Assembly: GCA_973895155.1 (NCBI GenBank)
Contig: OZ316893.1
Span: forward strand, 11,413,660 to 11,477,659
DNA length: 64,000 bases
Direction: 5' to 3'
Source of the DNA: Marsupella aquatica
Lineage: Eukaryota; Plantae; Marchantiophyta
Part shown: positions 13,202 to 58,392 of the stretch, piece by piece
How positions within the stretch are numbered: the first letter of the stretch is position 1
Layout of the letters: every line of letters starts with the position of its first letter
Notes under the pieces: generated by a model
The model's input: only the letters and a program-made list of their open reading frames with translations
What the model was told of the DNA's origin: nothing
Database searches by the model: none
Translations under genes and position numbers: made by a program

Positions 13202-13498
13202 TGTTAGGAATTGACTCAAGTTCCCGACTATAGTTAGTTTGGCCTTACTAGGTTTAATTGACCCTTGGTTAATTAAGGATAAGATCCACTTATTTTAGGC
13301 CCACACATCTTAGTCCCCCTTGGGGGTATAGGTTGGAGGGAGAGCATTCTCTCCCTCATTCTTCACATGTTCAATCTCATGAGCTATGGATTCTTTAGGA
13401 GTTTCTCCATGATCGTGGTGTCTTGTTGGTGTAGTGTGAGATTGAGTGCTCTCATGTTCCGCATTGTTGTCTAGTCTGGAGCTGACGGTTTTCCTACA
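13202..13498 (+). repeat. 5' LTR of the copia element
   Basis: TGTTAGGAA...TTCCTACA; differs from the 3' LTR by six substitutions and two 1-bp indels (counted by eye). Confidence 0.95.
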
Positions 13499-13500
13499 AG

Positions 13501-13512
13501 TGGTATTAGAGC
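13501..13512 (+). promoter_or_regulatory. Primer-binding site for tRNA-iMet
   Basis: TGGTATTAGAGC, 2 bp after the LTR; one mismatch from the canonical TGGTATCAGAGC. Confidence 0.85.
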
Positions 13513-14145
13513 TTTGTGTTCGACATTCGGTTGCCTGGACAATGGTGAGAGTATTCTTTGTGTTGAATCATGGTGACGGATCAGATTGTTCTCAATAATT
13601 TGGGTGATCGTGTCACTGGTCGTTGTGCACTGGAGGTTTCGCGTTCAGAATGAGTGACGATTTCCCAATTGAAACTTCACATCAGAAGTGTCGGATGTGT
13701 CTCTAGTTTTCTAAATGTACTATCAGGCGGATAGTCTTGCGTTTCATTGTGCACATCGGCGAGCACTTCAACTCGGTGAAATTTTCATAGCGTTTCATCC
13801 GGCGAGTGCGGAGCAATATCGTTTTATGTTTTGCTGTTTGTAGCCTGATCTCTTTGGCTATGGAGTCTTTGTGCTCGGCTTGATCTCTTACGGGGTCTTG
13901 GGTCGATGTTTTCTTGGAAAAACGTCGATGTTCTTTTTCTCAATATTTTCTTCGTTCACCTCTTGGGTCACGTTGCGCAACAATTTGCGGCGTCGCCGCC
14001 AATTTGTGTAGTGGAGTACGAGTGGAGTACGCAGCCATCAGGCACTATAGCGGTGAGGTGTGGTTGTTACTTAGGGCTAACAGAAAATGACAAGTGAACA
14101 GTGATTTTGTCTTGAAATCACGTCGTGTTTGGCGCTTGTTTTGAG

Positions 14146-14375
14146 TGGTGGTGAGAAGTTTCACCCGCAGAACACTATTCCGTTGCAACTCAGTGGTGGT
14201 GAGACAGTCTCCCACGAAACATTGTTCCGTTGCAGCTCAATGGTGGTGAGAAAGTCTCCCACGGAACACTATTCCATCGCGGTTCGTTGGTGGGAAAAAA
14301 CAGTACCCACGGAACACCGTTCCGCGGCAGCTTTGCGGTGGGAAAAACAGGGACCCACGGAACACCGTTCCACGG
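14146..14375 (+). repeat. Tandem repeats of about 46 bp in the copia 5' leader
   Basis: About five copies of ggtggtgagaaa...cccacggaacac(t/c)(a/g)ttcc. Confidence 0.8.
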
Positions 14376-14583
14376 GTGCTTTGAGGAGGCAAAAATAAAT
14401 AAAAATTCTGGATAACTTTTTCAGGAGCAGTTTTTTGCCAAATTGTTTTCAAATATTGGTAGTGTACCTTGCAGGCTACGCGGTGGTGCATTACAGTTCC
14501 ACTTTTGCCAACTTTCATTTTTTGGTGATTGTGTGTAGAGATATTTTGGTACTTGTGTTTCCTTTGTGTTTGTGTCAACATCA

Positions 14584-17500: not shown

Positions 17501-18922
17501 TGGCACTTACAAGGCACGCCTTATGACCAAAGGGTACACCCAGAAGGAGGGCTTGGACTACACAGAGATTTTCTCACCAGTTGTCAAACTCGCTAGTATC
17601 CGTGTTTTACTTGCAATTGTGACATTGTATGATCTTGAGTTAGATCAAATGGATGTAATTACTGCTTTCCTGCATGGATGCTTGATGTGGAGATTTATAT
17701 GGCTCAACCTCCAGGTTTTATTGACAAGAAGACCAGACACTTGGTGTGTCAGCTCTTGTGCTCGTTATACGGATTGAAGCAGAGTCCCAGACAATGGAAT
17801 AAGCATTTTGATTCCTTCATGTTATCACAGGGGTTCACCCGGAGTGAACATGATTGTTGTATTTACATGAAGGAGGTGGAGAATTACTCACACTTCGGTT
17901 ACATTATGCTGGCACTGTACGTGAATGACATGCTGATCCTGGCTAAGAATAAGTCTGATGTTGCCCATCTGAAGGCAATGCTAAGTAAGGAGTTTTCAAT
18001 GAAGGAATTGGGTCAAGCCAAGAAGATTCTAGGGATGAAAATCCATCGTGATAGGGAGCAGAGGCAATTATGGTTGTCTCAGAGGCAGTATATAGAGAAA
18101 GTACTTGCCAAGTATGGGATGGATAATGCAAAACCAGTTGGTACTCCGTTGGTTTACCACTTTAAACTCTCAAAGAATGATTGCCCTTCTAGTGAGAGTG
18201 ATAGACTGGCGATGAAATAGGTTCCCTATGATAGTGTTGTGGGTAGTTTGATGTATGCAATGACATGCACTAGACCTGACATTGCCCACGCCGTTAGCAT
18301 TTTGAGTAGATTTATGGAAAACCCTGGTAAACTTCATTGGGAAGCAGTGAAGTGGGTTTTGCGATATCTGAAAGGTACCTTAGATTGTGGGATTCTATTT
18401 GATGGTAAAGCAAACTCTACATTAGAGTTGGGAGGTTTTGTAGATTCAGATTATGCTGGTAACTTGGATAACAGGAAGTCTACTACAGGCTATGTGTTTA
18501 TGTTGGGTGGAGGTTGTATCAGTTGGAAGTCGACAACTCAATCTTGTGTTACGTTATCTACTACTGAGGCTGAGTACATGGCTGCCTGCGAGCCAACCAA
18601 GGAGCTGATCTGGCTACAAAGATTGGTGAGTGATTTGGGTCTTTTAACTGAAAGACCGGTGCTGCTGTGTGACAGTCAAAGTGCTTTGCATCTAGCTAAG
18701 AACCCTGTGTTCCATGCTAGGACAAAGCACATTGATATTTGTTATCACTTCATCCGTGAGGTGATTGAGATGAAGCAGATGTTTCTGGAGAAGGTGGCTT
18801 CAGAGAAGAATGCGGCAGATATGCTTACCAAAGTTTTACCTACCAGTAGCTTTAGTCATTGTGTGAATATAATTAATGTTAGGGCCAAACTAGCGAACTG
18901 GAGTCAAGGTGGAGATTGTTAG
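14584..18922 (+). pseudogene. Copia gag-pol pseudogene
   Basis: Recognisable motifs: MTSRKLAAPKFEVEKFDGK gag start, CWHCHEKGHTKWSC knuckle, WMLDSGSSYH protease, LWHARLGH...CEDC and HSDVWG...DNGGE...QQNGVAE integrase, RT with YVNDML (YVDD altered), VDSDYAG...TEAEY RNase H. Stops at 15282, 15489, 16942 and 18218; frameshifts near 15790, 17460 and 17680; solo-LTR insertion in gag. Confidence 0.93.
14737..15081 (+). mobile_element. Solo LTR (family B) nested in copia gag
   Basis: TGTTAGG...CTCTACA with TSD TTACA at 14732-14736 and 15082-15086. Removing it restores gag KPSTLT|DEEWEDM. Confidence 0.93.
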
Positions 18923-19213
18923 GAATTGACTCGAGTTCCCGACTATAGTTAGTTTGGCCTTACTAGGGTTAATTGACCCTTGGTTAATTAAGGATAAGAT
19001 CCACTTATTTAGGCCCACACATCTTAGTCCCCCTTGGGGGGTATAGGTTGGAGGGAGAGCATTCTCTCCCTCATTCTTCACATGTTCAATCTCATGGGCT
19101 ATGGATTCTTCAGGAGTTTCTCCATGATCGTGGTGTCTTGTTGGTGTAGTGTGAGATTGAGTGCTCTCATGTTCCGCATTGCTGTCTAGTCTAGAGCTGA
19201 CGGTTTTCCTACA
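18917..19213 (+). repeat. 3' LTR of the copia element, preceded by PPT AAGGTGGAGAT
   Basis: Direct repeat of 13202-13498. Confidence 0.95.
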
Positions 19214-19890
19214 AAGCCCTCATCTTACTGGTCATTATGAAGACTATTGCAAATTATGAAGACTATTGCAAAATCACATTTGGATGAGGTAATTTATCAT
19301 ATATTTTCACTAAAATTTGTAAAACTATCTCAGCATAATAAGGTGTGTTACCAGATCATTTTGGACCATGATAGACTCACACAACTTGATCTAAAGCTAA
19401 TATCATATACATTATTTTTACTCAAACAAGGCCTAAAAAATGTAGCTAGGGGGTCCACTAACTAATTTGTGGTGTTCTTGCATGGAACAAATCCATCAAG
19501 ATTATCAAATTCGTCACCGCTCCTCTCTTGTATTGCTCCACAATGCTACCTCCAGCCCCCTGAGTTCCCTTTAACTCCTCCCGCCTCTTGCTTCAATGCT
19601 TTGCGTTGCGTTGCGTAGTTCCTCTCCTCTCGTTGCTATATGCTACTACACTTCCGCTTTGCCTCACCAGCAAGAAAAGGAGACACACAGAGAAAAAAGG
19701 AGACGGACAAAGAGAGGCTATAAGAGAGTGAGAGGAAGGGAGAGACTCTGCAAGAGAGAGAAGAAATGGAGGAGTAGACTTTAGTTTGCAGGCCTCAAAA
19801 AGCAATCAGTCTATGATTTTGCCACACAGCCCCTGGCTGAATTAGCCTTCAACAATATCAACAGCCACCCACTCAACCTTGCCCCCTTTG

Positions 19891-33069: not shown

Positions 33070-36000
33070 CTAGTATCCGGGGGGGCGCTGGCCCCTTCCG
33101 GCCCCCCCAATCCTTGTGAAAACCCCGGAGAAGTTGGGAATTTTGTTCAAATGCTTAAGACATTTCTCTGCCAGGGGCTTCGTTGCTGCGTTCCCATTCC
33201 TCAGAGCATCGACCAGACCCGTGTGGACATTTTGATCTGCAGAAATCAATTGTGCCAATTCCGCGTTGCGAAGTATCTTTTCCACCATGAACACTGATTT
33301 TTGTCTCAGTGTAGGAGTTTTATGCTCCTGCATGATGTCGAGAATGGGCTGGATGGCATTGTTTATATGGAGAACCAAGACGCCTTTAGCATGGTGTACA
33401 TTATCCAACAGAACAGTGAAAAGAGCTCCGAGAGCAGCTTCTACCACTTCATAGTTGTAATGGTCTAGCAATGACACCAGGGGCTCCAATGCCCTCGCTT
33501 CTACTAAACAAAAGGTCTCTTTGGAAGAGCACACGCCTCCATGTACAGGGCAAAGCCCAGCTGGTCGAGGTGGAGGCTTAAAACAAGAGAAAAGTTCACG
33601 GAACCTTCCAGCGTCGCCAGCTAGCGGAACTTCTACTGAACACAGTGGTGTGAACGTGGACAAGTTGTCCAGAGCTAAAGCTGATTGACGCTGAACCTCA
33701 TCCAATCTCGTATTTCGCAACAAGGATGTGAAGAAGGTTGTCAAATCATGAAATTTGATCTCGGCAACAACGTCCCTGTCTTCTAACGCGAAGGTGAAAC
33801 GAGCTAAAATGGTCACCAGTCCCTCCTGCAATTGGTTCATGAATCGAGCTTCACCAATCCTCACGTTTCTTTTTTTCACTTCATTAATTCGAGTGACCAA
33901 TATGGGCAGGGCTCGCTCCTCATAAAGACTCCGAGTAAGGTACATATCATCCACCGGTAAATTGGCAATGAGACCGGCAGCAGCAGCTTGTTCTTTTATC
34001 CCTCCATCGGTATCCAACAGTTTGATCAAAGTTCCTAGCTGCCGTGTGGTAATTCTCAATCCATCGGCTAGCTCCTGCCCCATGGGACCAGACAAAATAT
34101 GCAGAAGCCGGATTGCAGGGACCCTGAGCTGATCCTGGGGTGCCTCCAAAAAGTGGATGAGACTGGTGACGGCCCCAGAACTTCTGATGTGGGCTACAAG
34201 ATGGGCCACAGCGTGTTGTGAAGTCGCAAGTCCTACCAAAACCAGCAGGAGCTTGGCCTGTATTATGGGACCTGTATTACTGATCAAGTACAGTAGGTTG
34301 TGCACAGTTTTCTCTGAGACGAGCGTGTTGCCGTCAGCATCAATGGGAACATTCTGCCACTCGCTACTTGTCTCCACCACATTTGCTAAAACTGAGGCGC
34401 ACACTTCTTTCATTTTCACAGACGCTGGTCCCTCCACGAAGAGGTCCTTTACGAGAGGAAGCAAAATGCCTGCTTCTATAAGGAGTTTTCCATTGCTCTC
34501 CAGTGCAGAAAGGTTCTTGAGGGCCCTCAGAGCAACTTCCCGTGTGGGCATCTCTGGATCGTCGAGCATTGACACCAACTTACTGGCTCCTTGTTCTGCT
34601 ACTACGACCTTTCCTTCAGTTGTTAAGGGAATGGTCGCCAGATCATTTGCCATCTCCAGTCGAATCCCATCTGAACCTGAAACCATACCAACAGCAACAT
34701 GTAAATATTAGACGCATAGCCTCGTAACTGACGACCAGACACATAGCCTCGTAACAGACCAGACACTTGGCCTCGTAAGAGACCACGAAGCAAACCTCTA
34801 GGAGCGTCACGCTAGTTAGCTACATCTTCACCATGGATTGTTTCTGACGGAAAAATCTAGATTCAATACGAGTAAGGTGGAACTTGTCCACGTAATTATA
34901 TCAATTATGCATATCAGGCATGGGAAAGTGTCAGCAATGTAACCACTGGGACTACTGCAGTTTATGTGACATCAACCATATTCCTCGTAATGAAACATCT
35001 CCACATGAGACACGTCATTAAGGTAACTCTTACTACTACACAAAACGAATCTGTAGGGACCGTTCTATTACTTCACCTATGCTTTGGGCAGGACAACAGC
35101 TTCAGAACCGAACGAACTCAATTTGGGAAGATCGTCCGGATGAAGTTCACACCATAGACAATCCAGTAAGCCATAAAGTCGAAAACTTTACAAGCTGCTG
35201 GCGATTATTCAGTGTGTACTGGGGGGCACTGAACTCACCGTCTATGAGGCGTCGAAGGAGAGGTTGCAATCGACCATTTTCAGCCAACTGCCGGACATTC
35301 CTATTATTTCGCTCAAGATTTGCTAGTGTTGCTTCAGCTTTTTCGACTGCAATGACATTGTCTGACTTGCTGCTTGTTACTCCCACCAAGTACAGTATCA
35401 TGCCATTGGTTGATCCCATTTCTTCACATATATCTTGGGAATTTGAAAGTTCGTAAAGTAACGACGCAGCTTCCTGTCGTTCGTCGGATGCAGACCTTGC
35501 CAAACATTTCAAAACACTGCGCAGGGCACCTGCTGCTACGATCGCCTCCTGTACGATACACATCCAAGGGTCTAATCTGTTAAAAACCTAGACAACAACC
35601 TTACAAACTAGACATTCGACAAGAATTGAATCTGACCATGAAAGCGCCCAAGTGAAGGCTCCGACCTTCGTAAAATAATAAATTAAGAGAACTTGGTCTT
35701 TGATGCAAGGGGAGCTGTCTTCTTACCCTGCTGTCATTATCATCTTCTGCCAGTGCTCTTAAGAGGCCGAGTGATCGCAATCGGACTTGCGACATGTTTT
35801 TCAAAAGCCCCACGATGAGTGGAATCAGTCCAGCAGTCCTAATCCTGTATTTGTTCAACCTTTTCCTCATGACTAACGCTTGTAGATCCTTGAGGGCATA
35901 GGAGAGATCTTGCTCGGGACAATTCTCGTTGGCCATGAGGTAATAGGCATTATCAATCCGAGCTATCTCATTTCGATTTGTCCACTCATCGATTGTATTC

Positions 36001-37034
36001 CTAAGAGCGATGCTGGGCTTCAAATTGGTGGTCTGTAGCACTTGCCCAGTCATGGGGCAAGTGTTGGGCCTCTTGTCATCCTCACACTGCTTGAACCAGC
36101 GCTCTATGGCACTCCTCTCATACGTTTGACCGTTCTCGAGTGACACCGGATCCACCATCACCTGCTTCGTCAGAGGGCACACGAATGCTTCATACAGAGG
36201 CTCGATCCGAGCGTGTAGACGTTGCTGAGTTTCGGATGATGGACTTGGATGGTCATAAACTTGTACCCAGCTTTCAAAAATATTCCCTATGATGTCAACC
36301 ATGTGAAGATCGTATGAACCCCTTCGATTGTGGTCCCCTGTGTCGTTGTAGCCCCCTCTGTTCCGTGTGTTGTCACTGGTAGGGTCCCCCATGTCTATGC
36401 TAGAGTCCTGCATGTCGTTGCGGAGGAGCTCCATCTGGTCCTTGAGAGCGTTGGGGTTGCGAGGCAAGTCTTTCAGGCCCACGGTGCGGGCAATGTCCAT
36501 AACAATTCCAGTCTGCACTGCAATATCAGTGGGGACGGAATCCGTCTCCTCAAGCGAGCGGTAAATTCTCTCCTCGGTCTCCTGCACCTGGTATTCGGCC
36601 TTCTGCATTTCTTGCGAGAGAGAATCAATCAACTGCTTTGTTTCTGGAAGGTCCTGAACTGCTGAGAGCGGAACTAGGCCTATGGACCGTCCAATGCTAT
36701 GAGTCACGCTCTCAAGCTGTTTCACAACTGATCTACAATGGGTTAGCAAGTAAATGCGACTCTTCCTGGTGCAAATCTTGACCAGCTGGTTGGCATTTTC
36801 CACGTCGTTGGTCAACGAGTCTATGATCTGCAAGAAATTGGGTGAGCTCTCCCGGGCTTTGTTGACCTCAACCACAATGGGCACTAAACGCTTCAGATAC
36901 TCGCCCAGCTGCAGAAAGTTCTCTCTCTCCCAGTGCACTCCGTTGACAGAATTTTCCACGACGGTCAGTTTATCAAGCAGATTATGCCCAAGAGTCACCA
37001 CTCCAGGTAAATCTACGGACTGTACATCAACCAT
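33070..37034 (-). CDS. Plant U-box/ARM-repeat E3 ubiquitin ligase with N-terminal UND region (SAUL1/PUB43/PUB44 class, NOP1-like), 1074 aa; exons 37034-35727, 35548-35239, 34676-33070
   Basis: U-box IEPLYEAFVCPLTKQVMVDPVSLENGQTYERSAIERWF...CPMT...LKPSIALRNTIDEW; ARM repeats; SAUL1-type CPVHGGVCSSKETFCLVEA and AEKCLKHLNKIPNFSGVF C-terminus; in-frame GT-AG junctions. Confidence 0.93.
34708..34785. repeat. Three tandem copies of about 27 bp in U-box gene intron 2
   Basis: agac(a/g)catagcctcgtaac...gacc repeated. Confidence 0.75.
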
Positions 37035-39097
37035 TTTCGAAGAAACTTGAAGAAGAATTTTCCTACATTGTCAGATAGACGTTCAGGGTCAGTGGCAGGC
37101 ATTCATTCAAAGCACCATCTCACATTCATCAAAGAGGTGGAACAGAGTACCATCTACTTGCGGACGTGGACCAGGACCAGGACCAGGACCAGACCAGGGG
37201 AAGACCGTAACAGATGACGCGATGTAATCCGTCTACTCAAAGTCGTTAATCAGCGAGTAAGCTCTCAACTTTTTGAACTCGAACATGTCAACACTAATCA
37301 CAGTAATTTCTGGAGTGCAAGAACAGATAGACTCCTGTAGATAGTATACCAAAATTGTTCAAGTTCAATCAATCCACTCTTCGACGTAGAAGTGGACCAA
37401 CAGACGAGAGAACCTTTTCTCCACAGAAAGCTAATGATAATCTCTTCCCGAAGAAGTTCTACCCATTAAACCTTGGACAGCATTACTTACAATTAACCCG
37501 GTCACTTTCCTCCTCCTGAAGACTCCAGCTCTCTGCTATAGGCTCTATGATCTTACTGTCCCTCGTTCTGTCTCTCTCGAACTGTGTATGCGGGTCAACG
37601 GACGTGCGATTACTTCAAGCGGGTGGAGGAATAATTCGTGAAAGCTTACCAGTTAGCGCTAGAGTACGGAGGCACTGCCCAGAGTTGGAATCTTCTTCCG
37701 GTAAAGGCGCATTATATCTTCCCTGCCTGCTTCACTCCGTCCCTTTCCTTTCCTTTCGTCCCCTCTGCACTAATTCCAAGACTTGCTTGATTTCCTTTGG
37801 ATTGATTTTATCTGATTGCAGCCGGCGAGAGCAGCGGACTCCACGATAAACGAACCGAAAGAATGAAGAAATCTGATCAGCCTTCTCAAAATTGCCCAGA
37901 TGTTGCCAGTCCACCGCGTATAGCAACTCTACTGCTGCTGCTTCTCCTAGTGCCCATTCTCGGACGAAACAAGTGCAAATCCTCTGCGCCAGCGATATCC
38001 TTTCTCAAACTCCCATCGACTCTTGCAACCTGCTCTCCTCCTCCTCCTCTGCGCGCCTCGGCTCTCATCTGCTCTCTGCCCTCTGCCCTCCTTCCTGCGC
38101 AGCTCATGCCACCGTCTAGTCGCCAACCCAAGCACCGTGCATGCGAAGACAGAGACGAACACTACACCTCCCAGAATCGTCTAGAACGGATGACCATACC
38201 CGTCTCTCATCCACACTTCCTCCTCCTACACCGATTCATGAAACGAGGTCGTTGGGCGACCGGGCAAGAGAGAGGAAAGGGCTGGGCTGAGCTCGGCTAG
38301 GCTAGCCAAGGCAAGGCAAGGCAAGGCAAGGCTGACAAACACACAGGGGTGATCGTCTGAAACAGATTCTGAATGACACGATAGGCCAGGGGCCCAGGGC
38401 TGAACCGAGAGTACCTGCGGAGTAACAGGAGAGAACAGGTCAAAGCTGAGAAGGTTGTGGGTAGACTTTTGTGGACAGCCTCTCCTCTTGTCGGTAGCTC
38501 CGCACGAACGTCACCAGAAGCTGACTGAACACCACCATCCCGACAAACCTCTGATTATTAGTGCCGATCAACCTCATCAGACCCAAAGTTGTCGATGGCA
38601 GAGATGAGAGCTCTACTACAGTAGAGATAGTTAGAAATACTGAGAGATTGAGAGATTGAGAGGAGGCGAGCTAAATCAAGGGAGGATGGAGAGACCCACG
38701 AAGTTTTCCACCATTATTGTATTCTCTACTGCCGATTGTACCCATCGCAGATTCCCCCCGTCCCAGTTCCCAACAATGAAAATGAAATGAGGAGCAGGGA
38801 ACCGAACAGCAGAATGAGGGACAATCTTTTCCTATCATCTTCGATACATCGAACTATCGAAGCTCTGAATCAGAGATTTCGCCGCCTGAGATGGGTCGGG
38901 ACTGTTATGTTCCCTCTGTTTTCTGTCTCCTCACCGATTTGCCAGCCAGCTTGACGGCCAGCCAGCTAGGCCACCACGATCCGAGGAGGAGATACGAAAA
39001 TGGCAGCTGGGTCCTGAGCCCTGAGTGACGGTCTGTTTTGATGAAGAAGTCAACTGCTCGCTGCGTCAGATTATTGGCACCGTTTTCTCTGTGGCGA

Positions 39098-42499: not shown

Positions 42500-44118
42500 A
42501 AGCATCAAAATACTTGATGGCCCATCTACAGTAGCTAAAGATATTCCTAACCCTTCAAATATACTTAATGGGCCCCTTGTCCCTTTAACCCTTTCTCAGG
42601 ACCAGTCATATTATTTTTTCTATTCTTTTAATGTAACATGACTGGACTATGTCAGTCTATCAGATATACTATCTAGAAGCAATTTTTAGTGTATTCTTAT
42701 TTAAAATACTTATATAACATATGTGCAAAGTAATTAGCTCCTGTCACTCTCATATTCATTTTAAATCACTCTTGCACAGAAAGTAGGGAGTACTTATTTT
42801 CTTTACTTATTCCCTAACAATTACTAAAAGATTAGATTAGACATGGAGAAATGTTTAAAAGTTTTGATGAGTTTAATGGTTGCCTTCATTCAAGGAATGT
42901 CCTGCATGGGAGGGCTTCTGCCTGGTTGAAAACAAAATACATGTTTCATGTTCATGTTTGTCGTTTTGGAACCACTTTCCAAAGGTCTTGTAGCAAGGTT
43001 AAGGGAGACCACCCTGAGGCTTGTGAGGACCAATCAGATTGCAGAAGGGACCCTGAGGATTGTGGAGATGACAATGGTGGCTATTGTTAGGTATTTATTC
43101 AAGGTCTAGGGTTACAACATGTAACCAAAGTTAGGCTAACCGTAGTTGGAGATGTGGTTAGGTTAACTAGAATGTCCACTATATGTCAAACAATGTTTGC
43201 TTGGATAAGTGAAACTTAGGCTCATTGTTACGGATCCAATCGAGAGATAGAGAGAGTTTGTGCTATGAAAACTTGGTATGGCCGGTCGGTCTAGAGTGCA
43301 ATAAAGCTCTTGTGTGTTCCCGTGGACGTAGCCTCATGTGGAGGTGAATCACATATCTCTCTGTGTCGACTACTTGATCGTTGGATGTGTCATGTGCTTA
43401 CCGTTGCGATCATTGTTTATGCTCAATAGCTATTGCGTAAATTGCCTGAAATACTCTACCTAGGTGCTCACACCTAAATAACAAATATCACACAAATGAC
43501 ACCAAGGAAATGCTCACGTCTAGGATGAATATTTCCAAAAATGTTTTTGGAAAAATAGTATCAAAGAATTGTTTAACTCCCACATGATTTATTTGCAAAA
43601 AACAACTTCTAAAAAATAGCACCCAAAACCATGGTTCACCTTCCTATAGTTCAGGTAAGACTGTGCTTTGAAGGAATACTTTCAGGGTATGAGTAATTTC
43701 AAAAAATGGAGAGAAAATAACTAAGGAGAACAAAAATTAGGTACCTTAAGTACTACTTCCCTTGCATAAGTATTTCAAAACATGAAACAACTGAATATGG
43801 GAGTGAGAAGTGCTAAATAATTCATACATAAATTATATACTAATTTTCAAATAAGAGTACACTGAATTGCTTCTAGACACTACATTTGGTGGACTCACGT
43901 AGATAGTTGTATAGTATGTTCGAATTCAAAAATGGAAAAAATAATATGACAGGTCCTGACAAAGGGTTACAGGGACAAGTGGCTCCATTAAGTATATTTG
44001 AAAAGTTAGGGGCTCCTCAGCAATATCTTTAGCTAGAGGGGCCATTAAGTATATTTGAAAAGTTTGGGGCTCGTGGCGAATATCTTTAGCTAGAGGGCCC
44101 CATCAAATATTTTGCTGG
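42500..44118. mobile_element. Non-autonomous element with long diverged terminal inverted repeats (Mutator-like/foldback)
   Basis: About 42500-42820 is the reverse complement of about 43710-44118; e.g. cttgtccctttaaccctttctcaggaccagtcatattattttttc vs gaaaaaataatatgacaggtcctgacaaagggttacagggacaag, and tctagaagcaatt vs aattgcttctaga. Exact ends and TSD not resolved. Confidence 0.7.
43085..43428 (+). mobile_element. Solo LTR (family B) nested in the TIR element
   Basis: TGTTAGG...CTCAATA (terminal CA mutated); TSD GCTAT at 43080-43084 and 43429-43433; homologous to 14737-15081. Confidence 0.9.
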
Positions 44119-46865: not shown

Positions 46866-49141
46866 GTCATCGTTCTGTCTACTATAGTGGAGAAGTGACA
46901 TTCGGCGTATGATTTTTGTTTGGCATAATTGGAAGAGAAATTATGGTGTCGTGGCAGAGATCCCCATGAAGCTCCTTTATTAGCAGAGCAAACAGACGGA
47001 TTCTCCATCATCATGCTCGGGACCAATATTAAACATGGTTGGCTTATGTTTCATTGACCGACTGACCTTAATTTGGGGATATGCTAGATGGAGAATGATA
47101 GAGGGAAGAAGACTTTGGCCTTGTTTGAGTAAAAGAGTAATATTTACGGTGAAATTTATAAGTAAGCAACGTGTTAGTTTCTTGCATGCCAAAAATGCAC
47201 TTTAATTGTTGTTTCCCCAGTTGGCTCTATATGCTTGTCCTGATTTGATTTCTCATTTTGTGGTGACATCTGACTACCAAAATTGAGAGAGTTGTCCGTT
47301 CTGGGAAATTATCTATTATTCTCTTGTTTGGGTAGAAACCTTTAGGGTTTAGGGTTTAAAAACTTCAACCAATTGCCCAATGCATATGGCTCCAAGAGTC
47401 ACTAAAACTGAAAATGAAGCTCCTATGGACCAAGCAGGGAACCCTACAACACATATGAACTGGAACACCTCTTACACCTTCACTCAATGGCACCCTTATT
47501 GTTTCTAAGACATTTCCAGCAGCAAAGTTTGACCTTCAATAATCCCCTCTATATCCAATGGAATCTGTTTCTTGGGGGTTTGTTAGAAACGGCTTGGTAA
47601 GATATTTCCAATGATCCTATTACGATCAATGGGATAATCAGATGCATTGAATTTTGAGAGACCTAAAGAATTCTAAAGTTGACTTCTAAAGCTGAGTGGT
47701 GTGTTTGGAATTTAACTTCCTCCCCATTTCCTGAAACAACCAACATACTTTTCCAGACACCAGTTTTTGGACATCACATTTTGCACTAGGACCCACAATG
47801 TTTACAGTAATTACTCTTGCACGAATCTGATAAACCCTAAGGCAGCCAACGAGGCATTGAACTACTGTAAGGACGTTCAGTTTTGTGCATGCCCTTCTTT
47901 GAAATCTTGATATTTTTACCTTTCAAAGTTTAGATCTATGCCATAAATGATTCCCTACATTTCAATTTTTGCTCTGAAAACAGTGTTTTAACTTTAAAAT
48001 TGGAAGATTATCCCTAAATATGCATGGTAAATTTGTTCCGTTTCATAAAAGCACCTTCAAATCTCAATAATTACTTATTTATTGAACAAACCTGATTGTC
48101 AATAGGGTATGTTAGAGCATCTCCAGCGGTCCTTTAAAATAGTCTTTAATCTCCATGTCATGCCGAGGGACAGTGCCGCTTGTGCACATCGGCATGTCCC
48201 TCGCATGCCCGCTAGGTATGGTTAGGGCTAGTGTACTACTTGAGTTAGTGTCATGTTCTTGTAGCGAGTCTGGGCTGTTCTTGAAGCAAAAGGGGTTTGT
48301 TAGTGTGACGCCTGGACCCGGTCCTACTTAGGGCATGTTTTTCTCTGCCATTCTTCAGTTCTTCTTGAATTGCTGTGAGACAGAGTTTTTCAGAGGCTGC
48401 TCGTCGGTTCCGTACACGGAATTCACACAGTGATTCGTTAGATGCTCCCGGCCGATCTTGGCATCTCGCCGGTTTTCGATTCGATTTCAGTACAATTGTT
48501 TCTCTTACGCCTTTTATTCAAGAAGAACTGTCGAGTTAGCGGTGAAGGGAAGAAAATTGCTCGTGACGATTTCGACAATTTCTGGTGAAGCCATTGCAAT
48601 TTCTTTGACGGACATCGGAGTGACGAGTTAAAAGTTATGGGTTTATTGTGGTGTTATGTGTATACTTAAGTGTATACACATAACAAGGGGGCCCAGGTTT
48701 TTTTTTTCCGGCCGCAACCTTCTTTGTCACCTACATCGGCGACTTGCTGCTGACTGCACAGGCCGTTGCGCCCCCGCTCGCATTTTTATGACACTTTGGG
48801 GGGGCCCCTTTTTCGTTAGTTTTATGGTCGCATTCCCGGCCACGGCTGCCGGCGAGTTTGCCTCGGCCACCTCGCGACTACCTCGCGACTGCATAGGACC
48901 GAGCCCCTATTACATCCTTACGTTTTCGGCCATGCGCCTCCCCTCGGCACTTCTCCCCTTCCCGGGCATTTTCGTTTCATCTCGTTTTCCGATGCACTTG
49001 CCAGCTTCCTGCCATTACAATTAAAACAGGGGAGAAGGAGCGAGAACCAAGGGCACGAGGCCCTATGGAGAATAAAGGAGGAGGGGGAGTTGAAGCGAAA
49101 GCAGGGCACGAGGCCCTAGGCAGCTCTGAAGCATTAAAGAG

Positions 49142-49485
49142 TGTTGAGCATAGACGACATTCGCAACGGCAAGCCCATGAACCATCCAACGCACAATAGT
49201 CGACACAGAGAGATACGTGGTTCACCTCCACATGAGGCTACGTCCACGGGAACACACAAGAGCTTTACTGCACTCTAGGCCGATCGGCCATACCAAGCAT
49301 ACACAGCACAAGCTCTCCCTATCTCTCAACTAGCTCCGTAACAATGAGCCTAAGTTCCACCAGGGTCTGGCATCAGCCCTGGCTATATGCACAACAGCAC
49401 TAGCGCTAACATTAGCTAAGTCCTAACCCGAGTTAGACTAACTGTGGTTAGCTCATGAGTCACAAGACTAGAGCAATATCTAACA
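49142..49485 (-). mobile_element. Solo LTR (family B) inserted antisense in the gypsy leader
   Basis: The minus strand reads TGTTAGA...CTCAACA; TSD AAGAG at 49137-49141 and 49486-49490. Confidence 0.92.
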
Positions 49486-50070
49486 AAGAGGGGGGGGGAG
49501 TACATTCGACTCCCTCTCTCGGAAGTCCTCCTGCAGGGCACGAAGCCCTTAATTCAGCTTTAAAGAGGGGGGGGGAGTACTCGCGACTCCTCTCTCGGGA
49601 GTCACTCGCTGCCAGGGCACAAGGCCCAAAAGGGGGATAGGGGGAGCTCATAGTGGGGCATGAAGCCCTATGCAGGGCCCGAGCCATTAAGTTGTCACCT
49701 CGCCTCAGCCTCGCCTCGCCTCGCCCTGCAGCATAGGGTACCGTGCCTCCCGAGTGTGCGTACACCTGCTTCTTTCCGGCCTCTTTTTCTTCCAGGGAGC
49801 CCGACGATGTATCCACATTGGGCACCGACCGGTGCCCTTTATGTGTATACACAGACCCCTGTCTATACACATAACGGAGGCCCCTTTTGGCCGTTTCCTC
49901 TTGTTTTCTTTCCATTCATTTTCTTGTGAGCATATTTTCGACAGGGCCGGTCTACACATTTCTGCCTCGCAGTGTTGTTTCCTTTGTGGGTTACATTTCA
50001 TAGCCTTGGGGTTGCCACACCTTTTTCTTGTCAGTTTCTTTCCTATTGGCACCCCGGGTGAGCATGCAGC

Positions 50071-52900
50071 ATGTCAGCAGAGGAGCCGAGTCGTAGCAGC
50101 TCATCGCCACCGACACCCCGGTACCACTTACGGAGTGATCCACGACCGTTGGTGCCAATTTCATTGGAGTCTCGGCAATTTCAACGACGTCCACAGACAG
50201 CAGCAGCACCCACACCACGCAATCCTCCTGCTACATTTGGCGGTCGCTTCACCATTACTCCGAAGCCTGCTATCACTTCATTGCCATTTACCCCTTCTGC
50301 ATCAGTGGTTGTTCTAGCTTCACCGACATACAGCATGGATGCTAGCCACTCATCTGGCCGCATTGAGCGCTTCAGCGGGCGGCCAGGCACTGTTTCTTTA
50401 TGTGAGTTCAAATCCACTTTCTACACTGTCGTTTATGAATTGGAGTTGAAGTACGGCAGCAATTTCACAAATGCTTTTGCATTTAAGCAGCTAGCCAGGT
50501 ATGTGCACCACGAGGCTTTGGATGTGTATGAGCAGCATTCTCAACGGCTACTTGCTGTCACACAGTTGCCTAACCCTACCTATGCCAGTGCAATTGCGGC
50601 TGCCTCACAACTGGCATTACAGAATGCCATTGCAGCCCATGCTGCTGCTCCTGCCACTTCCCCTCCTACTCCAGTTCCCACCACTGCACCAGTTACTCCC
50701 ACTGTCTTGGCACAGGCTACATCAGGCATTTCTCCCACCATTGATTCCCCTGCCTTTGCTGATCCAGTGGCTGAGTTTTTCCAGGTTCTTGAATTGGAAT
50801 TCCCAATCAAGAGTGCTGACAAAATCATGCAGTTGGCCACCTTTGTGAGGCAGCGCGATGAAACATTGAAGATGCTGTATCGCCGGCTTCTCAAGCTGAA
50901 GGAAGACACCCAGAGCATCACTGACCTGGAAGCTGCACATCGCTATCTTCGTGCATTGGAGGGCACACCAGCTCTCCACTCGCAAGTGTTGCAGCAAGTA
51001 TTCTCAGAGTTTGGAGACAGCTACACCTTGCTCAATGTCTATGACACTTCTGAGAAACTTGAGTTGGCCCATGCACATTATGAAGCCAGTATTGCGCGTC
51101 CACCGCGATCCAGGTACCAGGTTGCTGCCCCTACACTGGCCACTCCTTCCCGTGTGCCACAGTATGGTTCCAAGACCAAGCCAGTACATGCTGCTTTCAT
51201 GCTGCCATCTTGCAACTACTGTGGTAACCCCAATCACAAGGCTAATGAATGTGATATTGTTGTTGAGGACCTGTCTTGTGATTTTTGCGGAAAAGTGGGC
51301 CACTTGGAGGCAGTTTGTTTTGCCAAATTCCCAGAGAGGAAGCAGCTACGACAGCAGGCCCCTCATCCTGCTCCTGCTTCCACTCCCCCACCAGCTAGGA
51401 GGGCTCCTATTGCCTCAGTTGCTCCTCCTTCCAGTGGCAAAGCACCCGGTGCCAACAAACCGCCCAAGCAGCAACAGAAGCAACCAGCTCAGAAGGAGGC
51501 TCACAACGCACAGGCAACTCAACTCCAGTCTTTGACTCATGAGGTTGAGTCCCTACGTGCCCAACTTGCCAACATCAAAGGCAAGTCAACTGCCTCTGCT
51601 GGTCCTTCTCAACCGGCTGGTCACGTGCAACCCATCCCTGGCCCCGGCACCACTGACAGTTCAGCCCCTCTACCCCGCTCTTTCTATGGCTTGCCATTTG
51701 ATGCTCATATGGGTGAGTGTGTATTGTCCTCTGCTACACAACCTGGCCTTACAGCAGAATTTTCAGATTCATTCTGCCCTTCCTATTTTGCATACCAGCA
51801 GGCCAGTGCTGCCTCCCGTATTGCTCCCACACGCCGCATTGTACAGGCTGATGGTCTTGCTGCTGGTCCTATGACTAGAGCCAGGGGAGCTCGGGCTGTC
51901 ATGCCCCAATCTTTTCAGCCACTCACACTTGCTGAAGAGCGCACCTTGTTGGCGAGGGGGGAGGGAGCTGCAGCTACATCCATTCCACCACCAGGTGCTG
52001 CTGACATTTCACAGGGAGTTGTTTTTCCTGCGCTGCTTGAGCACTTCACCTCCGGTATGGCACAAAGGATTCTTACCACTCCACTTTTCAGTTGCCATGA
52101 TTTACAGCTGGATGCTAGAACTGTCATCAGAGCGCTAGAGGGCTCACTGCATTCTTCATCAGCCCCTGTGACACCGGTTTTGGAGGTCCAATCTCATGTA
52201 AATATTGGACCTTCTTCTTCTCCATTGCATGCTTCCACTGGTTTGGCTATCCTAGTACCGATTTCCAGTGGTAGAGATGACAATATTGCTGCAGATTGTG
52301 TGACGAGAGCTACACTTGATTCTGGTCATGTTGCTCCATCTTTCCTGGCTATGCTGTTGAGTGGGAAGACCGTGGACACTAACTCCCTTCACAAGGTACC
52401 TCATCATTTGCCAAAAGTGGTGCCTAGTGACAGGACTTTAGTTTCCACCACCATTGCCATTGTTGACAACAGGAATTCAGCAGTCAAGTTGGAGGGTCAC
52501 ACTCCTCAGGTGGTCATGCTAGACACAGGTGCTCAACCAGTAATCTTGGGCATTCAGTTTGCCAAGAAGATGGGACTGTTGACTGATCATTTACAGCCAT
52601 CCAAGTGACATATTTGGACTGCTAGTGGCACTGTGGAGGATGTGCTGGGTGAGAGTTCTACTTTACTCACTCTCACTTTTAATGGAGGTACAGATCAGGA
52701 ACTGCATTTCCCAGTCAGATGTTTGGTTACCAATGCCACTACGTATGATGTGCTCATTGGCCAGGAGGCTTTGTTCCCACCAGGTTTTACCATTGACAAC
52801 TGGCATGAGCATGCATACTACAGAGTTGATTGGCATACGGATGGCTCACACTTGGGATACATTCCACTGGATTTGCATGGTGCCCATACCCCTATGGCTC
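50071..52900 (+). pseudogene. Gag (two CCHC knuckles) and aspartic protease of the gypsy element
   Basis: CNYCGNPNHKANEC and CDFCGKVGHLEAVC from 51211; VMLDTGAQPVILG at about 52513; YDVLIG. One in-frame TGA at 52606; the frame continues as HIWTASGTVEDVLGE. Confidence 0.88.
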
Positions 52901-53181
52901 ACCACTGTGTGTTGAAAGCAGTGCACACAACTACCTATGTCAACCACCCATTCCAGGATTGGATTGAGGAGGATGATGATGAGGTGGCTACTGCACATGC
53001 TGCTGCACGTATAGCAGCACTTTCCAGCAACGTGGATCATCAACCAGAGGTGGTACAACGGCTCCAAGCAGCCCATGGACCTTTGGTGGCTGCATTGCAC
53101 AAATTTGAGGACCTTGGGCAGCATCATGGACAACCAATAGCCCCAATCTTGAGCGCACCAGTTACATGGACTCCTCCTTCA

Positions 53182-54470
53182 GATGGCCTTACATTGCTTG
53201 AGCTTTTTGGTGGCATTTCTACAGGCCTGGAAGCTCTCCTACAGTCTGGCATGGTGGTGAAGCAGTACATCTATGTGGATATTGATCCAGGTGCAAGGCA
53301 AGTGGCTGAATCCCATCTGCTGGAATTTTCAGAGCGATTTCCTCAGCAGTTTCCACACAGTGCATGGAAGTCTGCATTTTCTTTCTTTCCTCCAGATATC
53401 CAGCTTGTCTAGCACCGGCACTTAACCCTTCTTGGCTCCCTTGATTTGATCATAGCTGGTTGGGAATGCCAAGGGTTTTCAACTGCTGGTCACGGTGCTG
53501 GACTGCATGATTCTCGTTCTGGCCTTTTCACAGCATTGGTTCAGATTCTCACCTGGGCTCAATCCCTTTATCCTGCTGTTGGTTATATCATTGAGAATAC
53601 TCCATCTCAGTTTGACCAGCGTCCACAGGTCAAAGAGGATTTCAGTGTGGTCCAGCACTACTTGGGACCACCCCTTCTCATTGATGCAGTGCACTATGGT
53701 TCTTATGCACATCGTCTTCGTAACTTTTGGACTAACCTTGCACCACCTTCCTTGCTGGAGATGGCTCTTCACCACACATCCAGGGACACTAACCTTACAG
53801 TGGACCAGATTTTGGATCCTGACAGTTCTTGCCAACCAGTTACACGGCAAGAGCCAGCACCTTGGTATCCAGCTAATACCATTGGACAACCCCGTGCTGC
53901 TTGGCCTACATTTGTGTCCTTTCCAGGTGCACATGCTTTTCAGGGTGATGGTCCTGGGCTGGTTTATCGACATTCTACCGGTACATGGGATGAACCTAGT
54001 CCTGAGGAGAGAGAACGGGCTATGGGCTTCCAACCCGGTACTACAGGTCACACCAAAATCACCAGGCTGGCCAGGAATGCTTTAATCAATCTATTCATTA
54101 AAAGTGAATTATTATTCAATTTGTGAACATTTGGGCAATAGAAAGTGTACATTTGGCTTTCAAAAAGTGTACATTTGGGCAAGAAATAAAAGTGATGGCC
54201 ATCAGACATACCACCATGTTCATCTTTTATAAATGAACTAGGATGAGACTCCTTCTAGTAAAGATCATTTTTTCTCCCTCAAGTTTACAATTGACTATTT
54301 AGGTGTAGAGTATTGTACTATAGTATACCTTTTGGGGTTAAAAAGTGTACATTTAGAGACCAAAAAGTGTACATTTCGAGGCCTAAAAGTGAACAAAATA
54401 AAATACACTTTTAATGAATAGGTGATTTTTACTTGGCAGGGTAATGGATCTCAATGCTCTCACTTGGCTT
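53182..54470 (+). pseudogene. DNMT3-like cytosine-5 DNA methyltransferase domain in frame with gag-protease; one TAG at 53410, MITE at 54085-54428
   Basis: Motif I LLELFGGISTGLEAL, II YIYVDID, III DIQLV, IV DLIIAGWECQGFS (Cys at 53467), VI YIIENT, VIII IDAVHYGSYAHRLRNFWTNL, IX ERERAMGF, and X RLARNAL|LGRVM after MITE removal. Confidence 0.88.
54085..54428. mobile_element. AT-rich MITE with terminal inverted repeats and TTA(/TTTA) TSD, possibly Tourist/Harbinger-type
   Basis: ctattcattaaaagtg near the left end vs cacttttaatgaatag near the right end; internal aaagtgtacattt repeats; TTA at 54082-54084 and 54429-54431. Removing it restores the DNMT frame. Confidence 0.85.
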
Positions 54471-54779
54471 CTGGTCACTTGCATCCTTTTTCAGATGTAC
54501 ATTCCTCCAGCATTAGGAGCTCCAGCCCTACCCCTCCACAGTGCTGCTACATGGCATCCAGACCAGGTGCACTTACCTCTATTCAACACTCACCGCTTCA
54601 GTCCAAGTGTTGGGAGGGAGGAGGTCCCTTGTAATGTGGTTGACATTATTTCTGAGTTTCATGGTGTGGATCAGACCAGAGCAACAGATACAGCAGGCCT
54701 TGGAGAGGCCTCATCACCTTATCAGCAGCATGCTAGCAACTTGGACAGTGGAGAGGCTGGCACTTCTGGCTCTTCAAGC

Positions 54780-57700
54780 ACGAGTACATCCTAGTGTTGC
54801 CAACTACACATTTATCATGGGCAACCACCTGAGTAAAAGACAGAAGGACCAGTTGTTGAATTTGCTCCTCAAGCATGAGAATGTGTTTGCTTTCTCTATG
54901 AAGGACTTGGGTAAGTGCAAGACTATGCAGTTCTCCATTGAGTTGGCTGATGAAACACCTATCTTTAGGCGGAGACACCGTTTGAGTAAGCATGAGTGGC
55001 AGCTGGTGGATGAGAGGTGCCAAGAGCTTTATGAAGCTGGTCTTATTCAGCCATCTACATCAGATTTTGCGGCAGCTACAGTGATGCCAGCAAAGAAGGA
55101 TTCCAGTGGATTGTGGACAGAGAAGCGCATGTGTGGGGACTACAGGCCATTGAACCTGGTCACACCCCAGGACAGGTACCCCATGCCGCGGCCAGAGGAG
55201 CTATTTGACAGCATTGGAGACTCAGACATCTTCACTCTTGTGGATCTAAGGCAAGGCTTCAACCAGATTTTGCTGCTTGCAAAGGATCGCAAGAAAACAA
55301 CTTTCCATGGTAGTAACCAACTATGGGAGTGGTTGGTGATGCATTTGGCTTGAAGAATGCGCCCATATTCTTTCAAAGAGTCATGGACCAGGTTCTGCAA
55401 GGTGCTGAGTTTCTGAAATGCTACATTGATGATGTGTTGGTCCACAGCAAAGGATTTGACCAGCATCTACTTGACCTTGAGGAGCTATTCATGAGGCTTA
55501 AGAAGGTGAACCTAAAGATACACCCCAAGAAGTGTGAATTTGCTATCAGATCAGTAGTATATCTTGGGCATCGCATTCTTCCAAATGGAACCATGGCTCA
55601 TTGGGCCAAGGTGGTATCCATCTTGGAAATGCCCACTCCTACCGATGTTCACACTTTGAGGAGTTTTATTGGGTTGTGCAATTACTACCGGATCTACATC
55701 AAAGATTTCAGTACCATTGCACACCCATTGTATGCTTTGTTGAAAAAGAATGTGACTTGGACATGGAGTATAGATGCTGAGGCAGCATTTGCCACTTTGA
55801 AGGAGAAGCTCTCAGAATACCCGGTGCTGAGAAGACCTGATTTCAACAAGGTCTTTGTGCTACACACAGATTGGAGTGCCCTTGGGATTGGTGCCATTCT
55901 GGGCCAGCATGATGAGGAAGGTAAAGAGTACGTCATTGCCTATGCATCCAGGAGCAACAATCAGGCAGAGAGTCATTATTCTTCTTATGAGGGTGAATGC
56001 CTTGCTGTTGTGTGGGCTGTCATACATTACAGGCCCTACCTCTATGGGACCAGGTTTGTTCTCTACACCGACCACCAGCCCTTGAAGTGGTTGAAGACCA
56101 ACGACGAGCTTACTGGCAAGCTTGCTCGTTGGGCACTCATACTCCAGGAGTATGATTTTGAGGTAATTCATAGGCCTGGTGTGACACATCAAAATGCTGA
56201 CACTATGTCCCGCAGCCCTTTGATTGCCTCTGATGATCCCTCAGATGCACGGCAGGATTTTGACCAGGTTTCCATCCTGCCTACATTTCATGCATCTACC
56301 TATCTTGCTTTGCTACCATGCTACATTGTTGACCAACCTGTGGTGGACATATGGGAGGACAGCGACACTCTGAGATTTCTGCAGGATGGGGAGTACCCCA
56401 CCCATGTTACTGCTGCCCAGAGAGACCGAATTCAGCAAAGGTCCAAGCGCTACTTGTGGAAGGGAGATCATCTTGTGCGTTGCTTGCCAGACAGGGAAGT
56501 GGTGGTTCCACCCATTCATGAGAGGGTTGGCCTTATCCGTAAGGTACATTCTGAGCTTGGTCATTTTGGTGTTAAGAGGACTTATAGCCTCTTGGTCCCC
56601 CATTATCATTGGAGAGGCATGCATGGCCAGGTTCGAGATGTTATTGCCCGGTGTGAGCAGTGTGATAGGGTAAGGACTTCTTTCACATCTTGGCAACCCA
56701 CACTTCATCCACTCCCTATTCAGGGCATGTTTTATCGTTGGTCATGTGATTTGGGTGGAGAATTACCCCTCACATCTCGGGGTAATCTCTACATCATGAT
56801 CATGATAGAGCATTTCTCCAAGTGGATAGAACTTGTGGCATTGCCGGATAAGACCTCCCGTAGCACCAGCCAGGCATTCTTGCAACAAGTTCTCAGCCGC
56901 TTTGGAGCTTGTGCAGAATGTCTCACTGACCAGGGCTCAGAGTTTAGAGGAGAGTTCCAGGAGCTGCTTGATCAAGCTCTCATTGATCATCGCCGGACAT
57001 CACGAGATCACCCACAGGCAGATGGCTTGGCAGAGCGCATGGTTCAGACATGCAAGAAGGGCCTTCGGAAGATCTGCCTCACCAAAAACAAGGAGGATTG
57101 GGACCTGGCCTTACCCTACATTGCCATGGGGTATAGGATGTCCAGACATGCATCACTGTCTAACTTTTCTCCCTACTTCTTGTTGTTTGGTCGTCACCCA
57201 GTTCCACCTTCTGCTATTGCTTCTCACATGCTTCAGGTGGTGGACTTGGATTCAGCTGTGACTTGGTCTGATGTGATCTCTGAGAGGGCTGCCCTACTCA
57301 GGAGGGTTATGCCCATGGCCATGGAGAATTTGGCCATTGCACAGCACAGGGACACACTGCGTTATGCACACACACGAGGGGGCACTTTTCAGCCCAAGGT
57401 CAGGAAGTTTGAAGTGGGAGATTTTGTGTACTTGCAGCGGCAAGCTAACGACACCCTGGACACCTCTACCAGTCGCACTATTCTCAGGGTCAAAGCTATT
57501 CGACCGTCTGGAGTGCTAGAGTTACAAGGGGCAGATGGGCGCACAATTGCTGACAATGCCAAGAATTGCGCCCCTTGTCATCTGCCTAACCTGGATCCCA
57601 CCATTGTGACTTCTACTTGGATTCCACCTATGGACTACCCTTGCAAAGTGTGTTTGCGAATTGATGATGCTGACCAGATGCTGCTGTGTGACAATTGCAA

Positions 57701-57794
57701 TGGAGGGTACCATCTTTTCTGCCTTCGGCCTGAACTTACCCAGGTGCCAGAAGGGTTATGGTTTTGCCCTTCCTGTGCTCCACGTGCTATCTGA
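54780..57794 (+). pseudogene. Gypsy RT, RNase H, integrase and C-terminal PHD finger
   Basis: RMCGDYRPLN, DLRQGFNQI, (MP)FGLKNAP with a 1-nt deletion near 55342, YIDD at 55422; RNase H LHTDWS...EGECLAV...YTDHQPL; integrase HSELGH...CEQC, WSCDL...TDQGSEF...GLAER; Cys4-His-Cys3 PHD at 57642-57777. Confidence 0.92.
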
Positions 57795-58392
57795 CTTTTC
57801 TTCAGCCCTCCTTTTGGCTGTGGTCTGGGGGGGGGGGGATACAAAGGTTTACACCTCCACTACGTACATACCACCTCAGTTGCTTTTTCTTGGCACCTGT
57901 GAATGTGATTGGACTTTTTCTATGCATGTTGGTTGCTAGCAGCTTGCACATATGCATTGCCGATGACTTGTATGTTTTCGATACACTATGGCTACGATAC
58001 TATATGTCACGACATCCACATTTTGGGGTTTCCTGTCAGAGTTTAGCAGCCTGCCCCTTGGCCCTTGGAGCCAGTGCTGGGGAGTACTACACTTTGTCAC
58101 CTGAAGCGGCTTGTCCTCTGCTATATTCTTCATGCTAACGGATAGTGATATTTGATGCATCCATTCATTTATCAAGGTCAAAAGATAACCTCAAGGCTAA
58201 TCAATGCAAATTAGCCCATGAGGTTAGGGTGCTGCCCACCTATGCCTGACCTAAGTATTGGCATAAATCATAGTTGCACAGTTTCCGACATCAGCCACAC
58301 CCTGGGTGAGTGGTGGGAGCACAGTAGTGAGGTAAGCCAGGTCTTGGGCTAGAATTCTGTTTGTGGTAGGGGATACCTTTTACACACATGAC

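Follow-up and report, generated by a model that had tools for sequence, protein, structure and literature searches.

The window, a stretch of 64,000 nucleotides from the liverwort Marsupella aquatica, contains a decayed Gypsy retrotransposon at 48156-58014 that is bordered by a 4-bp target duplication. The left copy of this duplication (TCCA) occupies 48152..48155, and the same letters stand at 58015-58018 after the right end. Between split end repeats the domains follow the order gag, protease, DNMT3-like methyltransferase, reverse transcriptase (RT), RNase H, integrase and PHD finger, which includes the protease-RT-RNase H-DDE integrase order of Gypsy elements. All features described here lie on the forward strand except the duplication, a nested LTR-like piece and a MITE-like insertion, to which no strand was assigned. 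The gag and the start of the aspartic protease (50335..52608, with a putative start codon) contain two CCHC-type knuckles, with Pfam matches to zf-CCHC and protease that stay below cut-off; the frame meets a premature stop at 52606, where the relative P0279 reads through. The DNMT3-like C5 cytosine methyltransferase (53182..54080) matches PF00145 with 27.5 bits (cut-off 22) and carries a premature stop at 53410. RT and RNase H (54856..56186) are accompanied by frame breaks near 54790 and 55341. The integrase (56511..57299) has an HHCC zinc finger and a D-D(35)-E core (D478, D538 and E573 of P0001), all residues of which are intact, and a model of the whole integrase found its best matches in foamy-virus and Ty3 integrases. 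It is followed by a C-terminal beta-barrel of five predicted strands (57384..57599), putatively SH3-like in its strand pattern, which ends in a C-x-P-C-H motif, and by the PHD finger (57642..57776).

Two further pieces of DNA interrupt the copy. A nested LTR-like piece from another repeat family (49134..49489) has inverted matches to 14865-15081 and 43209-43372; other copies are without it, and the joint 49133->49490 was recovered in 2/4 runs. The final methyltransferase motif is split by a MITE-like insertion of 347 nt with inverted ends (54081..54427, arms 54091-54110 / 54402-54421) and resumes after 54428; the joint 54080->54428 appeared in 4/4 runs, and the insertion belongs to this copy only. 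The window copy is dead: it carries two stops and two frame breaks, is interrupted by an insertion and lacks a second A repeat. No RNA record was among the data sets listed for it. The three antisense frames scanned inside the element gave no Pfam match and thus no sign of an additional gene of the REM1 type, and the window contains no tRNA gene. The CpG ratio was 0.26-0.28 in the element and 0.59-0.69 in two exons of the host. Across 22 related loci, however, the flanking DNA (0.23) had an even lower ratio than the element (0.37), and CpG depletion was therefore dropped as evidence on the methyltransferase or on targeting.

An earlier note on this DNA had proposed that a PHD finger stands at the integrase C terminus in the place of a chromodomain, and this was borne out. 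The frame 55317-57794 covers the last part of RT, RNase H and the integrase and closes with a complete Cys4-His-Cys3 finger as its final domain, with the first Cys codon at 57642, the last Cys ending at 57776 and the stop five residues later. The eight ligands are joined by a Trp two positions before the seventh Cys, within a P-x-G-x-W motif. A profile match, the lack of which had been named beforehand as a possible refutation, was obtained with PF00628 over 47/47 profile positions (44.7 bits, E 1.4e-11, cut-off 24). No chromodomain was among the 11 Pfam families matched by the frame at E<=0.1, nor was one matched in the 24 + 3 relatives scanned. The C4HC3 pattern with its Trp turns up a single time when the window is read in all six frames, and in 0/100 base shuffles, which together with the Pfam match excludes a chance pattern or mis-framed motif. 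A nested fragment of a host gene is excluded because the finger shares its reading frame with the integrase and has the same position in relatives, and a copy-specific capture is excluded by contig depth, which is the same over the PHD bin as over the integrase. Positions 57642-57776 are thus confirmed as a genuine PHD finger attached to the integrase C terminus.

An AlphaFold model of the last 140 residues (mean pLDDT 83.2) places the finger behind a barrel of five strands. The modelled finger has the cross-braced two-zinc fold and superimposes on the PHD of the ATXR5 PHD-H3 complex with 0.9 A over 47 columns, and on the BAZ2A PHD-unmodified H3K4 complex with 1.1-1.6 A. Acidic residues had been said to surround the second Cys pair. 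The run DDAD is indeed present, but it forms the loop ahead of that pair, and one Asp follows immediately after the third Cys.

No paired LTRs were found in the window copy, which has the short form A1-genes-B1. Repeat A1 (48156..48517) makes up the left end and begins with TG, and repeat B1 (57839..58014) makes up the right end and ends in CA, with a drop in contig depth and unrelated flanks past 58014. In contigs of other copies 58014 is joined back to 48156, and 48517 leads on to 57839 or 57845. Accordingly, repeat A recurs after B in those copies, and loose ends before 57839 corresponded to the end of A in 3/4 runs. Related loci were the best 80 of 531 confirmed, or 73 once seven duplicated pairs were reduced; among 65 non-redundant loci with enough DNA, 32 had the form A1-genes-B1-A2-B2 and 31 the form A1-genes-B1, while in two no end form was found. 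Both end forms are bordered by 4-bp duplications, which were exact in 11/18 loci with both ends called, agreed in 3/4 letters in four and did not match in three.

Repeat B begins directly after a polypurine tract with a run of 12 G (57827..57838), a G run that also precedes B1 in related loci, and repeat A stops directly before a stretch whose complement lies within A itself. The 5' arm of this predicted pair (48356..48370), a likely transcript start, comprises 15 nt that are fully complementary to the 3' arm (48516..48530) at the position of a primer-binding site. The pair is located at the same place in related loci, with two compensatory changes between these and the window, and from its geometry it looks like self-priming. 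Given this geometry and the position of the polypurine tract, we infer that the repeat of reverse transcription would be B+A and that the integrase would cut it in its middle. Insertion from one- and two-repeat circles would explain both end forms. Such insertion also predicts left ends of the form A-B-A, which occurred in 0/15 loci with a left end; a rival origin of the short form is deletion between B1 and B2 after insertion.

Relatives of the element were collected with the integrase tail (134 proteins) and with the methyltransferase only (93 proteins). A precomputed PHD match was present in 111 of the 120 relatives listed, a figure biased by a query that itself contained the PHD. Retention was therefore judged from the methyltransferase query, which yielded 42 chains holding both methyltransferase and integrase, 38 of them extending at least 170 residues past the integrase core. 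A finger is present in 34/38 of these chains, so the possibility that it is absent from other copies, likewise named as a refutation, did not materialize. Three of the remaining chains form one PHD-less subfamily and one has a degenerate finger, and the PHD is consequently the rule in the family, yet not indispensable. Conversely, where the loci had enough upstream DNA the methyltransferase was found in 38/41, the other three also being without the RT start and hence deleted or truncated. The suggested check on co-occurrence of the two domains across members was thus passed from both sides.

The finger follows the integrase core by 110-158 residues in 143/143 chains with both, and by 118-123 residues in 109/143. 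PHD and integrase distances are correlated (Mantel rho 0.31, with 0/999 permutations as high) and the nearest neighbour agrees in 85/122, which shows co-inheritance only, since kin share ancestry. Among related loci, omega of shared variants was 0.32 for the PHD (12 synonymous, 16 non-synonymous) and 0.23-0.52 for the other domains, compared with 0.60-0.80 for singletons, so that private variants are nearer to neutral; the counts are small and the loci include the seven duplicated pairs. Synonymous sites between the window and the loci were saturated, which made that dN/dS unusable. All eight ligands were kept in 33/76 fully read fingers, as expected for decayed copies. Named relatives came from Calypogeia, Marchantia, Sphagnum, Coleochaete, Closterium, Volvox, Hariotina and Monoraphidium, and the family, which is large and old, thus spans liverworts, Sphagnum, charophytes and chlorophytes. 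The nearest named protein among the matches listed is from Calypogeia fissa, at 85% over the searched region and 89% over the integrase.

To survey the residues of the histone-binding pocket, 141 complete fingers were drawn from 213 proteins. The window finger possesses an Ala1 pocket (Leu, Pro, Gly, Trp) and an Asp placed to bind Arg2. Across the survey the Asp after the third Cys is present in 132/141, and of the P-x-G-x-W motif the Pro is kept in 131/141, the Gly in 121/141 and the Trp in 137/141. The position two before the His, which we take to be that of the aromatic cage, is Gly in the window and in 124/141 members and Trp in 0/141, in agreement with the earlier statement that no cage is present. 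The lack of a cage is reported as a rule for readers of unmethylated H3K4 (10.1101/715474, PMC4291147). The conserved Asp, Pro, Gly and Trp of the family are equivalent to D312, P331, G333 and W335 of KDM5A PHD1, described as binding H3 Arg2 and Ala1 (10.1101/715474). The residues at the Lys4 patch are less uniform. The equivalents of KDM5A Glu305 and Asp306 are Ala and Asp in the window finger, Glu305 being a K4-binding residue in KDM5A, and at least one of the two patch positions is acidic in 74/141 members.

The 60 best of 86 solved PHD relatives comprise WSTF, KDM5/Lid PHD1, BAZ2A/B, ATXR5, CHD4, DPF/MOZ, UHRF, PHF21A, AIRE and the like, and ING, BPTF and TAF3 are not among these 60. The rice protein EHD3, a close structural relative, was solved with H3K4me1. 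For BAZ2A/B, K4me0 and K4me1 are reported to be bound equally and K4me3 about 6-11 times more weakly (PMC4291147), and KDM5A PHD1 is described as binding every methyl state to some degree (10.1101/715474). When the finger was modelled, in an uncontrolled prediction, together with an H3-like tail of 30 residues taken from an IMG/VR contig, the scores were 0.27 and 0.26 against a mark of 0.34; this speaks in neither direction, and such a prediction is blind to methylation. Because the Ala1 and Arg2 pockets are kept and the cage Trp is missing from all members, the finger is likely a reader of un- or mono-methylated H3K4, and a K4me3 reader is very unlikely. As the match to Glu305 is Ala and an acid is conserved in only about half of the members, the Lys4 read-out may be loose.

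What was observed is the PHD itself, joined to the integrase and kept across the family, with the Ala1 and Arg2 residues and without the cage Trp; from this we infer a role in targeting. With a probability of roughly 0.6, the PHD of working copies binds the free N terminus of H3 at un- or mono-methylated Lys4 and tethers the integration complex away from gene starts marked by H3K4me3. In such a mechanism the protease would release the integrase with the PHD still attached, the PHD would bind H3, trimethylation of Lys4 would weaken this binding, and insertion sites would be biased thereby, as by chromodomains in chromoviruses. [quoted passage not shown] In Marchantia, H3K4me3 is reported to go along with repressed genes (PMC10952607), and this blurs the benefit of avoiding the mark.

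The variable Lys4 patch also fits a finger that serves as a general nucleosome tether, gripping Ala1 and Arg2 of H3 with little regard to Lys4 methylation and making integration more efficient without choice of site. The near invariance of the Ala1 and Arg2 pocket residues next to variable Lys4-pocket acids is what such a tether would be expected to show. On the other hand, solved relatives of this sub-class are mostly reported to lose affinity on Lys4 trimethylation, and the cage Trp is uniformly missing, for which reasons an indiscriminate tether was judged rather unlikely beside a reader that is sensitive to Lys4 trimethylation.

In animal DNMT3, an ADD domain directly precedes the catalytic domain in one mature protein. 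The earlier note had seen in the element a parallel to this arrangement, and the presence of a DNMT3-like enzyme beside the PHD was upheld: the 29 best of 40 structure matches are DNMT3A/B/C with the motifs in order, the catalytic Cys and Glu-Asn are invariant in 81/81 relatives, and the domain is intronless and unrearranged. In close relatives it lies inside the polyprotein frame, with DNMT-RT-RH-IN-PHD on the single chain of P0274 and gag-PR-DNMT-RT on that of P0279. Its position varies, however, from before RT (window type) to between RNase H and integrase (Volvox and Hariotina type), and these two types separate on the RT tree and on the integrase tree (92/97, unrooted). The algal order RNase H, DNMT, integrase, PHD was found in 22/54 chains spanning RNase H to PHD. 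Fifteen proteins stop after gag-protease-DNMT, and in some subfamilies the methyltransferase ends that separate protein.

These arrangements bear on the possibility that the PHD guides or activates the methyltransferase on H3K4me0 chromatin. The nearly constant co-occurrence of the two domains would suit such a partnership, as would the algal order, which makes an uncleaved DNMT-integrase-PHD protein conceivable there. Yet about 1050 residues (RT, RNase H and integrase) separate the domains in the window type and about 520 in the algal type, the methyltransferase resides on a separate protein in the 15 short chains, and it moved between lineages while the PHD stayed put. Moreover, the finger is an ordinary C4HC3 PHD and not an ADD domain, and it lies beyond the integrase, unlike the adjacent animal module. 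With the PHD fixed behind the integrase and the methyltransferase 500-1050 residues off at a shifting position, the parallel is weak and such a partnership unlikely; the PHD probably does not activate the enzyme in the way that the ADD domain activates DNMT3A. The methyltransferase would more likely be a separate module of the same particle and methylate cDNA before insertion, a role proposed for retrotransposon DNMTs (PMC5890265). In yeast the K. nitens domain is reported to have shown no activity, an outcome from which its authors draw no firm conclusion. Least likely is a job apart from histones, as a folding or oligomer contact in the integrase or in binding a host protein with an H3-like N terminus: the C-x-P-C-H motif upstream (107/141 chains) hints at a structure shared with the barrel and some PHD fingers bind non-histone peptides (UHRF1-Stella structure entries), but surface conservation coincides with the H3 groove, and barrel and finger are packed without confidence in the model (pTM 0.55).

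A wider proposal can be put forward only tentatively, and it is doubtful in its full extent. The elements would carry a kit of reader and writer in a lineage that extends across green plants, in which the methyltransferase pre-methylates the cDNA and the integrase PHD brings it to H3K4me0 chromatin, joined in the algal branch by a Tudor-like domain. The algal DNMT-integrase-PHD would remain one uncleaved protein. A palindromic CA-NN-TG junction within the long repeat would be the place where the integrase cuts, and insertion would accordingly proceed from circular or internally cut cDNA and not from processed LTR ends.

The window element fits KnitGypsy-Dnmt3 of Klebsormidium nitens by its description and by kinship at the level of the integrase. 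KnitGypsy-Dnmt3 was described by de Mendoza et al. 2018 (PMC5890265) as having Gypsy domains with DIRS-like repeats, and shares with the present family an intronless, unrearranged DNMT3-like domain in a Gypsy polyprotein, the DIRS-like end repeats and purifying selection. On the integrase tree, the K. nitens integrase-PHD proteins P0008, P0031 and P0044 group on the same side as the window element (92/97), but no named K. nitens DNMT protein was among the search matches. KnitGypsy-Dnmt3 was published for one alga, whereas relatives were found here in liverworts, Sphagnum, charophytes and chlorophytes. A PHD is not mentioned in the text and readable supplements of PMC5890265, though its Fig. 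4c or supplementary figures might show one.

Chromodomains are the textbook case of retrotransposons reading histones to choose a landing site, and REM1 of Chlamydomonas reinhardtii is reportedly a Gypsy element with a PHD finger. Chromoviruses likewise have a histone reader at the integrase C terminus, and self-priming, which the window element also appears to use, is predicted for their Tcn1 clade (REXdb, Neumann et al. 2019, PMC6317226), but the reader there is a chromodomain, a feature that the window element lacks; the accessible text of PMC6317226 mentions neither 'PHD' nor 'methyltransferase'. Gypsy-7a_cRei of C. reinhardtii has a Gypsy polyprotein that includes a PHD, for which a role in limiting harmful insertions was proposed (10.1101/2022.06.16.496473; PMC9940879). 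Compared by description only, it differs in its ordinary paired LTRs, in the absence of a DNMT among the domains listed and in a PHD listed before the integrase, which may be a separate gain. EpiLTRs also combine a cytosine methyltransferase and a histone reader in one LTR retrotransposon, but are described as having a chromodomain and an adenine methyltransferase, with a DNMT that is placed as sister to DNMT4, and their authors set them apart from streptophyte Gypsy-DNMT3 (10.64898/2026.05.21.726589). The PHDs of BAZ2A/BAZ2B, WSTF, KDM5 (PHD1) and ATXR5 share with the window finger the fold, loop lengths, Arg2-binding Asp, P-x-G-x-W pocket and absence of a cage, as far as they are described (PMC4291147, 10.1101/715474); they belong to host chromatin proteins, and their Lys4-contacting acid is not conserved in the window finger. 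PHD fingers in retrotransposons have been called widespread (PMC6673714), and fusions of PHD and transposon domains were common in a genome survey (10.1101/2021.11.30.470311). No report of a PHD in Gypsy-DNMT3, or of Gypsy-DNMT3 in bryophytes or chlorophytes, was found in the literature searched, and subscription papers, Repbase, the Craig 2021 thesis or figure images may hold one. That search also found no test of a retroelement PHD and no paper naming the six Marchantia gene ids.

As a decayed member of a described kind, the window copy adds little by itself. Its significance lies in belonging to an old family whose integrase is tipped by a PHD and which keeps a catalytically intact-looking DNMT3. 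The many bryophyte copies, including those of Marchantia polymorpha, for which maps of histone marks exist, make two questions testable with existing data: whether integration is directed by a PHD, and which purpose DNMTs serve in retrotransposons.

The end repeats of the PHD-DNMT3 Gypsy element (48156-58014) and of its related loci (L001-L080) are split into two parts, A and B, and the full form (A1-genes-B1-A2-B2) and the short form (A1-genes-B1) are about equally frequent. Across this set, the element ends made by the integrase fall within the predicted long repeat, the B1/A2 junction is palindromic with a 2-nt spacer, and the joint between A2 and B2 varies slightly in length. A left end of the arrangement A-B-A was found in none of 15 loci, an absence that a simple two-repeat-circle model leaves unexplained. 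In place of a tRNA primer site, a self-priming pair is predicted at 48356-48370 and 48516-48530, and its position is the same in related loci, with two compensatory changes. Among the 16 loci in which the pair was examined, its exact match is 10-15 nt long in ten and at most 8 nt long in the other six.

The leader of the element also contains a nested piece (49134-49489) of a very abundant LTR-like repeat, of which two further pieces lie at 14841-15081 and 43187-43372. Elsewhere in the window, a Copia-type element with a broken pol occupies 13202-19214, its paired LTRs being 5715 nt apart and 97-98% alike. A host plant U-box/armadillo gene is located on the minus strand (33070-37070), with weak MCAfunc and RPW8-like matches in its N-terminal part.

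Between the barrel and the PHD finger of the element, a Cys-x-Pro-Cys-His motif (C-A-P-C-H, region 57561-57581) was observed. The proline and the second cysteine are its near-invariant residues, and the motif is a possible additional metal site. In algal-type members of the family (e.g. P0071, P0288, P0049, and P0157), the PHD finger is followed by a Tudor-like domain, in most cases at a distance of 30-47 residues. An iterated profile of this domain matched 76 of 98 long-tail proteins versus none of 53 short-tail proteins; Pfam Tudor gave a single weak match under the cut-off. Three members have lost the PHD finger but retained the Tudor-like domain. Separately, a histone H3-like N terminus is encoded by 38 IMG/VR contigs (L081-L118), many of which carry giant-virus bin labels, and several of the encoded proteins diverge in sequence beyond the tail.

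In Closterium, the protein P0256 combines a DNMT-like piece of the family with Copia-type domains in one chain, perhaps because nested elements were joined in a single gene model. In Marchantia polymorpha, at least a dozen gene models (P0030, P0236, P0238, P0239, P0241-P0244, and P0249-P0252) are fragments of this retrotransposon family, and some are labeled as DNA methyltransferase or PHD protein. Such pieces could falsely raise counts of host chromatin genes.
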